Shown here piece after piece: positions 4,901-20,200 of a stretch of DNA of 64,000 bases. Position 1 is the first letter of the stretch. Each line of letters opens with the position of its first letter. Origin of the DNA: a virus; the IMG/VR virus record IMGVR_UViG_3300042885_000570, positions 1 through 64,000 of that record, one strand, 5' to 3'. Position numbers and translations under genes: made by a program. The notes beneath the pieces are model-generated. The model saw nothing but the letters and a program-made list of their open reading frames with translations. It was not told the origin of the DNA and did not search any database.

Positions 4901-5216
4901 ATGCTTTTAGGGTCTCAAGTAGTTTTTCTTTTTTCTTTTTAAAAACCTCTTGATCTTTAACTTTTCTACCCTCAAACATTTTTATCTCCTTGCTTACATA
5001 TAGACGCATTTTATCTACTAAAGATGATAAGTTATCATCTCTAGTATCTTCTGGATCTATACCTGTTGCAGGTTCAGTTTCTTTATACTCATTTAAATCT
5101 GCATCATAATTATATCCACGTTCTGTCCATAATTCTAGTGCTCTTTCTTCATTACCATTAGCTTCTTTAAGAATATCCTGATACTCTTGACTAGTTTTAA
5201 TTGGGCATGTTAACAT
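1917..5216 (-). CDS. Large virion cargo/ejection protein (crAss-like, downstream of vRNAP)
   Basis: 1099 aa, mostly helical, C-terminal hydrophobic segment (LSIILGLAGLAAMLAYAF). Last of three giant ORFs; overlaps the vRNAP stop. Single Cys at position 4. Confidence 0.75.
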   Translation of the reverse strand: MLTCPIKTSQEYQDILKEANGNEERALELWTERGYNYDADLNEYKETEPATGIDPEDTRDDNLSSLVDKMRLYVSKEIKMFEGRKVKDQEVFKKKKEKLLETLKALDGVDSINMFVKDAFEEAQHAKKRFDAILSKVGTEDNKDILNELSAINEFANGYSILDEINKQDVYNFFSAGKDDRDPDTNKTAQDMLSDAVTIRNNIKKKYVQIGIPLMADWLLQYQAEGIEEKVLPHLETLKKRLDEVKASTNMSDKKKEKEIKALEDSINTWQNFSLDKKSLVELLTKASQDEGVIDYLISPLISSNDQSLGLFARAVKTELEVARLSDVQIKRLASAEFDKYKDTQSASQNNPAKFNEGLYEELVTINEKSDGTVEEIRRMAFVQKHDINKFNASKKAMFASLAGMSDAEQKRVKNQWFKDNTNSKSQEEIDKIIAAKLKLKNAKLLTQDEYDGWLDSVKVVTEKGNVYYKGELSEPSSKYLNENWKKLYNVDGTPKNPKGEYHKYLVDMYLGAQEKLPDAQKRGYLLPSIFKTDLERAQAKGLKDLAKHKFKEATSITANDVEFGIANLSEEGVKFLPVDYTRNMDASEVSLDLVRSVLIFNSMANKYDALNKIGNEINMFKTIIGEREVIQTNSKGKPIMDAFAKKIGFTEFLRQNGESYSKRHVDAFIDMVVYNEMQKAEDILGFSAAKITNTITGFSAITTIAADLLKGVANSLQGNIQLIIEASSGEYFSVKNLHKGKIEFAKSVPDLFSDFGKSTPTSWVGKMIEEFDPMQGNYKDAYGKNISQSAVIKLMRTDTLFFNQHWGEYEIQVSSMFALMEATKTIDTNTGEEISVLEAYKKYGPEGIYDNTEFTSKKRFDLQNKLHALSKRLHGVYNDFDKATVQRFSLGRLALMYKKHLVPGYKRRFKKASMDQELGNPVEGYYRTFNATMLKDIKKMKLNVFKNWATYSDFEKAQITRTLTELSIILGLAGLAAMLAYAFSGDDDDDEAVRKSYVYNFLMYELVRMRSETASYISPTDAMRVIKSPSAITGTLERTARFANQILPWNITETYKRDTGIWEKGDNKAWAYFLKLMGFSGNNIDPGEAVKGFESLIR

Positions 5217-17274: not shown

Positions 17275-20200
17275 TTAACAGTCAAGATTATTAAGTAAGT
17301 CATCTTCTATTTCAGACATTGATTTTGCATCTGCTTCTTTTATTGCAGCAGCAATTGCATCTGTGTCACCCATAAAGGTATTAAAGGCATCAACTGTCTC
17401 ATTAATAGTCTGTTTATCAATAGCATCAAGTATTTCTGGTGTTGATTCTGCTTGCTCTGTTTTAAGAATATCCATTGTTGTTGTGTGTTTATTTAACTCT
17501 TGTAAAGATAAGGTTTTTTCTTTACCCTTATTTGTAAAAGATACTGAATTTTCATCAGATTTCAAAACAGTTAATGTATCACCTTTTTCTGCAAATTCAG
17601 GTATTACTTCTTTAACAACTACTGTATCCTCTTTTTGTAGATTAAGCTCAGATGCTTTAGTAACTGGTCCTGTTTGAGGTTGTAATGCAGCTACTTCAGC
17701 ATCATACTTCTCTTTAAGTATTGCTTTAATTGCTTTTTCATTCCAACTTTCAATAAGTTCTTCTTTACCTTGTGCATCAGTATATATACCATAGTAACCT
17801 TCATCAGTTGAGTAATTAAACTGTATGCTACCGTATGCCTTATTTCTTCTTTTATCTATGTCTTTAGTATCCAATACTGATTCAACAACTGATTTATTTT
17901 CAGCAGGTGTTTCTAAAGCAGCTAGTTCTTGTTGAAGTTTATTTTTATAATTTATAAGTTCATTAGCAGCATAATTTTGTATTTTAGTTAATTGAATATT
18001 AGTAATGGCTTCTTTTCTAACTTCTACCCATTTAATTTCTAATCTTCCTGTTGCTGGATTTATACTGCTTTCAATTCCATAAATAGGTAGCTCATTAGGT
18101 GTACCTGCTAATACTTTCTCTTTATCAAATTCTGATATTGTTTTATTTCTAGCATCTGTTGCTTTAATAAGTTCTTCAAATAATTTAGGGTAGTTTGTAA
18201 GTAACTGAATGTTTTCTGGAGTTTGTAGAATAGTTCCATTTTTAACTTGTTTTTCAGCAAGTGCTAATACTTTAAGATAATCCCCTTCTTCAAATTCATT
18301 TTCTATAGTTTTATCAAAAGCTTTAATCTTATTTTCTACATCAGCTTTAGCATCTGTAGTAGGTGTTGGTTGAGATAGTCTAGAAGTTGCTGAAGCCGCA
18401 TCTTCATTTAATTTTTCTGCATCACTACTTACTTGATTACCTTCTCTACTTAAAGTAAAACCTGTTGCGTTTTTAAGTATTTTTTCAAATATTTCATTTG
18501 CTTTTTCATTCCCATAAGTATTATTTATTGCATCTCTTATTTCTTGCATTACAGAATTATAGGTATCTGTATTAATATCATCTTTAAGTATTTGACTAAG
18601 TTTATTTGCATATTTGTTTCTGATGTTATCAATTGCTTTACCAGAATAAGGAAAAACTGATGTTAAAGCTTGTAATAAATAATCAGTACTAAGAATTACT
18701 CCCTTACCTCCTGTAAATAAATAATTTGCTGCTATTGCACCATAAGGTGATTCATAATAGTCTTCATCAGCTTTAGCATTTGTAGGTGTAACTGTTTCAG
18801 CAGTTGCTTTACCAAATGACATTTTAGCTCCACTAGTTTGTTTAATATACTCCTTGTATGGTACATTATCTTTAGTAAGTTCAGCTGCTTGTTCTTTAGT
18901 TAAGTCATTGATAATACCAATTGGATAACCTAAGTTTACAAGTTGTTTCTTATATACTGGGTTTAATTCTGTTGCTACTTTAACAACTGGTGCTTCAATA
19001 GATATTGCTTTATCAATCTTAGCTTTAGCATCTGTAAAATTAGGATCAAGTGAGAAGTACCACTTACCTGGACCATTAAGTTTTGTATTAGTAGGTGCAC
19101 CAGCAGTTAATACTTTTTTACTGTTTTGATCTAATGTAGTCTCTATTGGGAATATATTAATATCAGCATCAAGACCTGTCATCTTTTTTAACAACCTTGC
19201 ATAAGTATATTGTTGAAGCGTATATGCTTCAAGTTTATTTTTACTGAATTTAGTCTGTGTTACAAATCCATCCCATTTAGTTTCATTACCTGTTTTAAAA
19301 TCAATGATGTGTAGTTTACCTTCCTTATCAATAAGTAGTAAATCCATCTCACCCGCTACGTTAGAATCTACATCATATACTTTAAGATTAGTTGCAACTG
19401 TATATAATTGACCAGCATCAATTCTTTGCTTGATAGGTTTTAAGAAACTTGTTGGCCCAAATAAATTATCATATGCTTCTCTAGTAATTTTTTTCTCATC
19501 AAATACGGGTGCTTCACCTTTTGTAAAGAATTTTCTTAACTCATCATCTACATAAGTACCACCATCTCTTGATGCTTCATATGTATTTTCACTTATAAAT
19601 GCTTGAATATCTTCTAATAACTCTTCTTTATTTTTAAATAATACTTTATTTAAATCTTGTACTAATAAATTCTTTAAGTGTTTTTTAAGTAATGCCTCAG
19701 TTTCATCTGTATAACCATAGTTTTTTTCAACTGACTCAATGTGTAATTCAGCTTTTAACTTATTAATAAGGTACTTTACACCCTTTTCATTAAATCCTAC
19801 ATTACCTATTGTCATATCATAAGCAGCTTTAACTATATCTGCACCTGTATATCTATATTTTTCAGTTTTATACTTTTCAATAAAATTACTTACTCTTGCT
19901 AATATTTGTCCTTTAACTGCATAACCTTCTTCACCAAGTTTACTTATACCACTTTGTTTAGCAAATAACTCATTCTTTAATGTTTTAATTATCTCTTGTA
20001 CCTCTGGTGTAAAGTTTTGTATATCTCTTGTAGATATCAACTTATTGAATTTAGTAATAACATCTTGATAAGCTGTTTTTGTAATTGTACTATCAGCTTC
20101 ATCTCTTAATTCTTCAAATTGTCCTCTGAATATTTTAATATCATCAATTGAATAAGCAGCTGTATTTAATTTTTTATTGTTTAGAATAAAGTCAAAATCA

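Follow-up and report, generated by a model that had tools for sequence, protein, structure and literature searches.

Three giant proteins encoded one after another on the minus strand of the virus genome IMGVR_UViG_3300042885_000570 (IMG/VR) contain only four cysteines between them, each lying at a protein end that faces a partner in gene order. The genome is a single contig of 85,148 nucleotides (nt), examined here as a whole, and its first 64,000 nt (approximately 30% G+C) are referred to as the window. The proteins of 2259, 4015 and 1099 amino acids (aa) are termed gp47-like, gp50-like and gp49-like after their counterparts in phage PhicrAss001, the second being the predicted virion RNA polymerase (vRNAP). 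Judged from their sequences and those of their relatives, disulfides Cys2259-Cys5 and Cys4015-Cys4 probably join the trio, in gene order, into a single, almost linear thread of about 831 kDa (summed mass, 831.2 kDa). The four retained cysteines would most likely be selected clasps at the two protein-protein junctions of ejected proteins that are otherwise purged of this amino acid.

A script count across the three open reading frames (ORFs) gave 4 Cys in 7,373 aa, and returned exactly the four residues and coordinates that the initial annotation had read by eye (Table 1), as well as Cys-free outer ends of the series, i.e. the N-terminus of the 2259-aa protein and the C-terminus of the 1099-aa protein. 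Cysteine makes up 1.08% of the other 44 ORFs of the genome, which predicts 79.6 residues in 7,373 aa, and 0.054% of the trio (Poisson P(<=4) = 4.8e-29). Here and below, a Cys was taken as N-terminal within the first 8 residues and as C-terminal within the last 13; with these end windows, the probability that four uniformly placed Cys fall one in each junction-facing end is 8.8e-11. Among the remaining 44 ORFs a Cys was found in the first 8 residues of 3 and in the last 13 of 5, and each of these eight proteins has more than one Cys (2-41). The cysteine pattern in the window is strongly non-random.

The same arrangement was found in relatives, which were collected as two sets of loci. The first set comprised 34 IMG/VR loci recovered with the C-terminal 600 aa of the 2259-aa and 4015-aa proteins as queries, 30 of which showed at least one junction with both Cys, with 3 of the 34 lacking any junction. 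In locus L031 the upstream Cys is present and the next ORF of at least 250 aa, which has no Cys, sits 1.5 kb away, and in L013 a 386-aa ORF with an N-terminal Cys only is followed by an ORF with none, as expected at the end of a chain. The second set was obtained by a profile-guided scan (alignment A1) and consisted of 80 loci that grouped into 49 clusters at 90% identity. Both Cys were present at all 68 visible junctions of these 49 IMG/VR clusters, the chain interiors contained 20 Cys in 188,329 aa (0.011%), and a C-terminal Cys was found in none of the 49 gp49-like ends. For 263 control ORFs located downstream in representative loci the Cys content was 0.96%, with a Cys in the first 8 residues of 32 and in the last 13 of 4.

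Analysis of the three families one by one revealed a polarity that matches their place in the series. With the 1099-aa protein as query, a full HMMER scan against 1.84 billion representatives yielded 2,695 matches, the best 150 of which were examined: these have 157 Cys in 269,434 aa (0.058%) and no C-terminal Cys in any of the 150, whereas 116 of the 120 that start with Met and measure 950-3399 aa have a Cys in the first 8 residues, usually as the third or fourth residue. The nine short proteins and the four that do not begin with Met, all of them probably fragments, carry no N-terminal Cys. In the gp47-like family the polarity is reversed, with a Cys 0-3 residues from the C-terminus in 68 of 79 members, an N-terminal Cys in 1 of 79 and no other Cys in 70 of 79. 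Members of the gp50-like family have Cys at both ends in 88 of 97 cases, at the N end only in 3 and at the C end only in 6, and no other Cys in 89 of 97. Cys frequency across the three families is 0.044-0.058%. Both the conservation of the terminal cysteines and their co-occurrence as matched C-/N-terminal pairs, for which the initial annotation had looked to orthologs, are therefore borne out.

Sequence around the cysteines is conserved as well. Cys4 of the 1099-aa protein belongs to the columns of A1 that are at least 90% conserved, in an alignment with a mean column identity of 23%, and Cys4015 is one of 2 invariant columns in alignment A2 (44 sequences). At the N end of 91 gp50-like members, Ile precedes the Cys at -2 in 71, Thr at -1 in 65, and Leu follows at +2 in 82. 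The tip motifs read MKITCAL.Q..QI at the gp50-like N end and C-P-N/I-K at the gp49-like N end, and the gp50-like C end is a helix with the motif hydrophobic-L-K-x-hydrophobic-C. Such conserved tip peptides are as expected of docking sites. The overhangs beyond the Cys are short, with 0-3 residues at the C-terminal tips and 2-5 at the N-terminal ones.

By their sequences, the cultured or reference phages PhicrAss001, phi14:2 and DAC15 obey the terminal-Cys rule, and further phages with two-protein systems are listed with them in Table 2. The gp47 gene of PhicrAss001 is encoded on the opposite strand, and its stop codon is 11.6 kb from the start codon of gp50; gp47, gp50 and gp49 of this phage have a summed mass of 693.9 kDa. 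In the IAS virus (L039, KJ003983.1) the 2159-aa polymerase ORF apparently lacks an N-terminal Cys and was left out of the count; this locus contains 113 N, with N runs directly upstream of the ORF, and the true start is unreadable. When read with translation table 11, the cargo genes of cr109_1 (L124, NC_055892.1) contain many in-frame stops (70 in the 4328-aa gene), which fits a reassigned stop codon, and the terminal-Cys rule is still kept. Leptolyngbya phage Lbo-JY46 (L123, PP438436.1) is a cultured cyanophage whose record is not placed under Crassvirales; its gp49-like part is fused into the 2748-aa ORF (tblastn, 2e-34), and in an upstream 674-aa ORF the one Cys, at residue 5, has no visible partner.

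Table 2. Cysteines of the cargo proteins in cultured or reference phages, in order of the series
Phage	Upstream protein	Middle protein	Downstream protein	Remark
PhicrAss001	gp47, 2341 aa, sole Cys2339 (...RCNS)	gp50, 2412 aa, Cys5/Cys1334/Cys2404	gp49, 1349 aa, sole Cys5	
phi14:2	g067, sole Cys1797 (last)	g066, Cys3 and Cys2179 of 2180	g065, sole Cys3	
DAC15	gp78, ends ...ECLE	2265 aa, C5 and C2265 (last), 3 inner Cys	1369 aa, C4 and C619	
LMMB	1957 aa, ...C1956		4070-aa fusion, C3, 7 inner Cys, end Cys-free	p-crAssphage type
cr11_1	1988 aa, ...C1987		4388 aa, C3	
cr1_1	4551 aa, C4548		2007 aa, C5	
cr118_1	4946 aa, C4943		1667 aa, C3	
cr109_1	4328 aa, C4326		1381 aa, C4	in-frame stops under translation table 11
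Lbo-JY46	1552 aa, sole Cys is last residue		2748 aa, sole Cys4	Leptolyngbya phage

The cysteines also follow the gene breaks. In many relatives the polymerase tail is a separate ORF of 244-782 aa, and where a gene is split in this way a Cys is found at both new ends. Loci with a split tail include L045-L047, L050-L055, L064, L080 and L101, among others. The split sites were mapped by blastp high-scoring segment pairs, which replaced local alignments that had mostly given spurious low scores; the separate ORFs match residues ~3890-4015 of the 4015-aa protein (3440-4015 in L064), and in L088 and L108 the upstream ORF covers this protein up to residue 3749. In the window the polymerase tail is fused and is Cys-free across the region in which its relatives are split. 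At L019, L023 and L030, gaps of 500-650 nt separate consecutive Cys-tipped ORFs and may hold small inserted genes.

Conversely, terminal Cys are gone where genes have been fused. Among 17 gp49-containing giants of at least 3,400 aa, 16 have no N-terminal Cys and 12, of up to 5,388 aa, are entirely Cys-free; the sole giant with an N-terminal Cys (Cys3) is the shortest, at 3,448 aa. A phmmer search with the window proteins detected only the gp49-like part in 15 of the 17 and a gp50-like part in 2 of the 17, and of the 16 giants without an N-terminal Cys, 9 have a DFDxD motif at residues 2460-2922. A gp47-family profile found no match in the giants, but it missed the positive control, PhicrAss001 gp47, too. 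The comparison of lineages with genes split or fused differently, which the initial annotation had called for, thus gave the outcome that a chain predicts on both counts. Residues 797-877 of the 4015-aa protein weakly match residues 2127-2203 of PhicrAss001 gp47 (blastp, 4e-4), which suggests that part of the C-terminal region of that gp47 lies inside the N-terminal part of the window polymerase; the gene break may therefore have shifted by hundreds of residues, the Cys pair shifting along with it.

A structural precedent comes from an unrelated phage. The cryo-electron microscopy (cryo-EM) structure of the pre-ejectosome of cyanopodophage A4 contains a disulfide between gp27 Cys1715 and gp26 Cys5, at the tip of a C-terminal helix (PNAS 2025, PMC12002296, available text). 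The record of Anabaena phage A-4L (Saffermanviridae) shows that Cys1715 is the sole Cys of a 1717-aa protein and Cys5 the sole Cys of a 1114-aa protein, and the pair is kept in Pf-WMP3, Pf-WMP4, TR020 and CHP58 (~25% identity), that is, in 5 of 5 Saffermanviridae-type phages. As in the window, the only cysteines lie near the C-terminus of the upstream protein and the N-terminus of the next, and the bond joins consecutive ejected proteins; the A4 helix that carries the Cys (PMC12002296, available text) has a parallel in the window polymerase, which is predicted to end in a Cys-capped helix. The two systems differ in that A4 links just two proteins, which belong to a T7-like core and include no vRNAP, whereas the window has two serial links around a central polymerase, and in that the available text of PMC12002296 presents the bond as a local stabilizer rather than as a rule of wider scope or part of a chain. 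Common descent with A4 gp27/gp26 was undetectable and was rejected: blastp between the A4 and crAss proteins gave E > 0.05, hhalign of A1 against gp26 gave a probability of 0.09, and a Foldseek search of the PDB with the gp49-like model (E <= 0.001) was empty.

Taken together, the comparative tests and this structural precedent partly support the head-to-tail disulfide interpretation, and the bond, its timing and its purpose are inferred from where the cysteines lie, from the way they are conserved and follow the gene breaks, and from the analogy with A4. The terminal peptides would dock non-covalently first, during assembly in the reducing cytoplasm, and the disulfides would lock once the particle is outside the cell. 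Disulfides between subunits do occur in PhicrAss001 virions, where they lie in the tail and at the portal vertex (PMC10172136, available text). Because the overhangs beyond the cysteines are so short, a partly unfolded chain could pass the tail from N to C, each protein pulling the next, and the placement of the Cys at the extreme termini fits a joint thin enough to thread through the tail. Host thiol reductases would then free the three parts. A broader version, which we put forward only tentatively and hold slightly less likely than its opposite, is that the terminal Cys pair is a redox-cleavable substitute for the peptide bond wherever the giant ejected polyprotein breaks, across Crassvirales and, independently, in Saffermanviridae cyanopodophages, the pieces being rejoined into a thread that is ejected N to C (gp47-like, RNA polymerase, gp49-like) and cut by host reductases.

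Several alternatives were weighed against the serial chain. That the termini dock non-covalently with their Cys reduced, the residue serving either to pack a docking motif or as a latch closed only by exposure to air, is unlikely but agrees with the conserved peptides around the Cys at the gp50-like and gp49-like tips, with assembly in a reducing cytoplasm and with the many hosts that are gut anaerobes. Packing, however, could be done by Ser, Ala or Val, whereas here Cys is purged everywhere else (0.011-0.058%) yet invariant at the tips, as seen in A2, and both partners are always gained and lost together. It is also improbable that the terminal disulfides form without a head-to-tail chain, as tail-to-tail gp47 dimers, head-to-head gp49 dimers, a self-closed gp50 or a gp47-gp49 pair. 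Proteins with Cys at both ends, the small split ORFs included, could cyclize, and the estimate that a PhicrAss001 capsid could hold about 6 copies of each protein (PMC10172136, available text) means that same-protein partners are at hand. Yet the two-protein systems (cr1_1, cr118_1, cr109_1, LMMB, cr11_1 and Lbo-JY46) allow one pair only, C-end to N-end, the fully fused giants keep no terminal Cys though able to cyclize, and the sole directly seen clasp, that of A4, joins an upstream C-end to a downstream N-end (PMC12002296, available text).

Other chemistry of the paired thiols, such as a joint metal ion, a lipid, a thioether or attachment to another part of the virion, appears distinctly improbable. 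Two adjacent thiols can bridge a metal, but no conserved His or further Cys adjoins either tip, the outer ends of the gp49-like and gp47-like families carry virtually no Cys to anchor a third partner (0/150 and 1/79, respectively), and the A4 density was modeled as a disulfide (PMC12002296, available text). A lipobox is impossible with only 2-5 residues ahead of the Cys, and a bacterial lipoprotein was rejected since the 3-4 residues before the Cys in the window (MLTC, MNITC) leave no room for a signal peptide of ~15 or more residues that ends in a lipobox. Prenylation of the CaaX type is not expected in a bacterial context and was rejected also on the position of the Cys, which is mostly the last residue. 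Finally, there is very little chance that the pattern is a functionless by-product of nucleotide constraints at the junctions, or of chance. The window has a 7-nt overlap, ATGTTAA, in which the Cys4015 codon and the next start codon share their TG, and 30 of 80 distinct junctions in relatives have the same -7 spacing, which may reflect translational coupling. Nevertheless, the other 50 junctions range from -10 to +18 nt, both TGT and TGC occur as Cys codons, the N-terminal Cys lie outside any overlap, and the remote, opposite-strand gp47 of PhicrAss001 still ends in ...RCNS; together with the placement probability computed for the window alone, this led us to reject a gene-overlap artefact, to the extent that sequence can decide.

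A number of observations weigh against the proposed chain. Of the 120 gp49-like proteins, four (P0018, P0081, P0137 and P0140) have no Cys at the N-terminus, although in P0140 an M-S-C at residues 20-22 suggests that the start was mis-called; a scan of viral contigs with P0018 as query found no relative. Likewise, 11 of 79 gp47-like proteins have no C-terminal Cys, 10 of them being Cys-free, and 9 of 97 gp50-like proteins have Cys at one end only. Several phages of the human gut carry extra internal Cys (7 in the 4070-aa fusion of LMMB, 3 in DAC15 and 4 in cr118_1), and in the 16 giants without N-terminal Cys the gp47-like part is assigned from length and motif position only. The available text of PMC10172136 mentions disulfides only for tail and portal-vertex proteins. 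The sequences would also allow the gp47 C-end to pair with the gp49 N-end next to a cyclized gp50, and the terminal thiols could stay reduced, many hosts living in anoxic guts. The precedent is one by analogy, as the A4 proteins have no detectable sequence or fold relation to those of the window.

The source genome is, by its gene content, a crAss-like phage, since it has capsid, portal and large terminase (TerL) genes of the crassvirus type: the major capsid gene at 55766-57382 matches Pfam Crass_capsid (PF23898, E 2.3e-32), the portal matches phrog_6547 (5.7e-90) and TerL phrog_6681 (5.3e-64). The designation of the 4015-aa protein as a vRNAP in the initial annotation is upheld by its DFDVD motif and by its similarity to PhicrAss001 gp50, in which DFDVD stands at residue 1483 and the blastp match of the window protein ends adjoining that motif; a DFDxD motif was named for crAss-like virion RNA polymerases by Drobysheva et al. 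(bioRxiv 10.1101/2020.03.07.982082, abstract). Mass spectrometry detected gp47, gp50 and gp49 in PhicrAss001 virions (Bayfield et al. 2023, PMC10172136, available text) and their counterparts g067, g066 and g065 among the virion proteins of phi14:2 (bioRxiv 10.1101/2020.03.07.982082, available text), and the three cargo proteins are thought to be ejected partly unfolded (available text of both sources). By analogy with these cultured relatives, the window trio is probably packed in the virion and ejected. The window shares with PhicrAss001 and phi14:2 homologous proteins in the same order, the DFDxD motif, a Crass_capsid gene and the terminal-Cys pattern; it differs in a larger polymerase (4015 aa compared to 2412 and 2180 aa, respectively) and in an extra cpYpsA domain. 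No close DNA relative of the window was found among GenBank phages by megablast, and a tblastn search of the same phages with the polymerase N-terminus matched only cr118_1.

Table 1. Features of the giant-protein module in the window, with strand and supporting evidence
Feature	Position	Strand	Evidence or remark
2259-aa protein, gp47-like, proposed first link	17275-24054	-	blastp PhicrAss001 gp47, 1.8e-9
Cys2259, last residue and sole Cys of the 2259-aa protein	TGT 17278-17280	-	followed by TAA TAA TAA
4015-aa virion RNA polymerase protein, gp50-like, proposed middle link	5210-17257	-	blastp PhicrAss001 gp50, 4.6e-15
Cys5 of the 4015-aa protein (MNITC...)	TGT 17243-17245	-	script count
DFDVD motif, residues 2317-2321 of the 4015-aa protein	10295-10309	-	motif named as the catalytic signature of crAss-like vRNAPs
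Embedded cpYpsA (SLOG) domain, residues 3271-3362 of the 4015-aa protein	7172-7447	-	Pfam PF12694; phrog_10774
C-terminal 156-aa domain of the 4015-aa protein	5213-5680	-	predicted to end in helix capped by Cys4015
Cys4015, last residue of the 4015-aa protein	TGT 5213-5215	-	only other Cys is Cys5
7-nt overlap ATGTTAA of the 4015-aa and 1099-aa genes	5210-5216	-	TG common to Cys4015 codon and start codon
1099-aa protein, gp49-like, proposed last link	1917-5216	-	blastp PhicrAss001 gp49, 1.6e-57
Cys4 (MLTC), sole Cys of the 1099-aa protein	TGC 5205-5207	-	script count

The N4 virion RNA polymerase is T7-like. The crAss polymerase is of a different kind, and belongs with the two-barrel multisubunit-type RNA polymerases (preprint listings). 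The window nonetheless resembles N4 (gp50) and DEV (gp71/gp72/gp73) in having ejected giant vRNAPs and partners that are strongly depleted of Cys: ejected proteins of Schitoviridae are nearly Cys-free, with 0.00075% in gp71 homologues compared to 0.865% in the proteomes, and the reason proposed for this suppression is the avoidance of unwanted disulfides during passage through the periplasm (PMC11445570, available text). DEV gp71 and N4 gp50 are without any Cys (same source), whereas the crAss module retains one at each junction-facing end.

The initial annotation had not been aware of any characterization of such a linkage. This holds for Crassvirales, for which no paper was found, but not beyond them, as the cryo-EM structure of A4 shows such a clasp (PMC12002296, available text). 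The literature searches returned no paper that deals with terminal cysteines or with disulfides of the cargo in crAss-like phages, and no crAss structure in which the cargo is resolved, although the supplementary tables of PMC10172136 and PMC12002296 may bear on the matter. In the available text of PMC10172136 and of bioRxiv 10.1101/2020.03.07.982082 the word cysteine occurs 0 times, and disulfide occurs 0 times in one and for tail and portal-vertex proteins only in the other; a 2026 paper on N4 contains none of the words disulfide, cysteine and covalent. What is already known is therefore the clasp, from one unrelated phage (A4), and the Cys purge, from N4-like phages. The putative serial chain around the polymerase and the order-wide rule for splits and fusions do not appear in the literature searched.

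Crassviruses, which outnumber all other phages in the human gut, have to pack cargo of several megadaltons and eject it in order through a narrow tail. A conserved covalent tether, if true, would offer a concrete mechanism for this, giving a 1:1:1 stoichiometry and a defined order of ejection in which each protein pulls the next, and would restrict the release, and perhaps the activation, of the polymerase to the reducing cytoplasm. It would also explain how the module can exist as one gene of at least 5,000 codons or as up to four or more genes with its function kept, and would point to a redox-sensitive step of infection. If true, terminal-Cys joining would be a mechanism of general reach, by which phages control the stoichiometry of the proteins they inject, the order in which these enter and their activation. 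Annotators, for their part, gain a simple rule for the true starts, ends and partners of giant ORFs.

Structure predictions were made for the junction between the polymerase and the gp49-like protein. The AlphaFold2 model of the C-terminal 156 aa of the polymerase (mean predicted local distance difference test, pLDDT, 85.7) has a helix at 141-155 followed by Cys156, and the gp49-like model (pLDDT 82.6; predicted template modeling score, pTM, 0.83) places Cys4 in a coil tail before a helix at 10-18. With Foldseek against the PDB, neither the C-terminal-domain model nor the whole gp49-like model had a match at E <= 0.001, and a sequence search of the PDB with the 4015-aa protein had no meaningful result (best E 0.073). 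Prediction of a complex between residues 1-840 of the 1099-aa protein and the C-terminal 156 aa of the polymerase, made with our own alignments A1 and A2, gave scores of 0.32, 0.02 and 0.03 (mark, 0.32), which speak neither for nor against a contact.

The domain embedded in the 4015-aa protein, described in the initial annotation as DUF4326-like, finds no support for that label in Pfam, which gives cpYpsA (PF12694; E 1.6e-6 with the whole 4015-aa protein and 6.8e-10 with the excised part), and no DUF4326 match at E <= 0.1. Relatives of the polymerase have other enzyme-like inserts, whose source names include AlkB dioxygenase, YbiA/DUF1768, exodeoxyribonuclease-5, ribonuclease HI and glutaredoxin 2. 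From this variety of inserts among its relatives, the giant ejected polymerase seems to be a carrier of variable effector domains.

Beyond the trio, seven consecutive large ORFs at 1917-35773 contain 6 Cys in 11,231 aa, and the purged run upstream of the trio includes ORFs of 981, 866, 717 and 1294 aa. On the other hand, tail-fibre-like ORFs at 41008-49764 have 1.8-8.1% Cys, with 41 Cys in the 506 aa of the ORF at 46166-47686. This contrast in Cys content may separate ejected or internal virion proteins from external, disulfide-stabilized ones.

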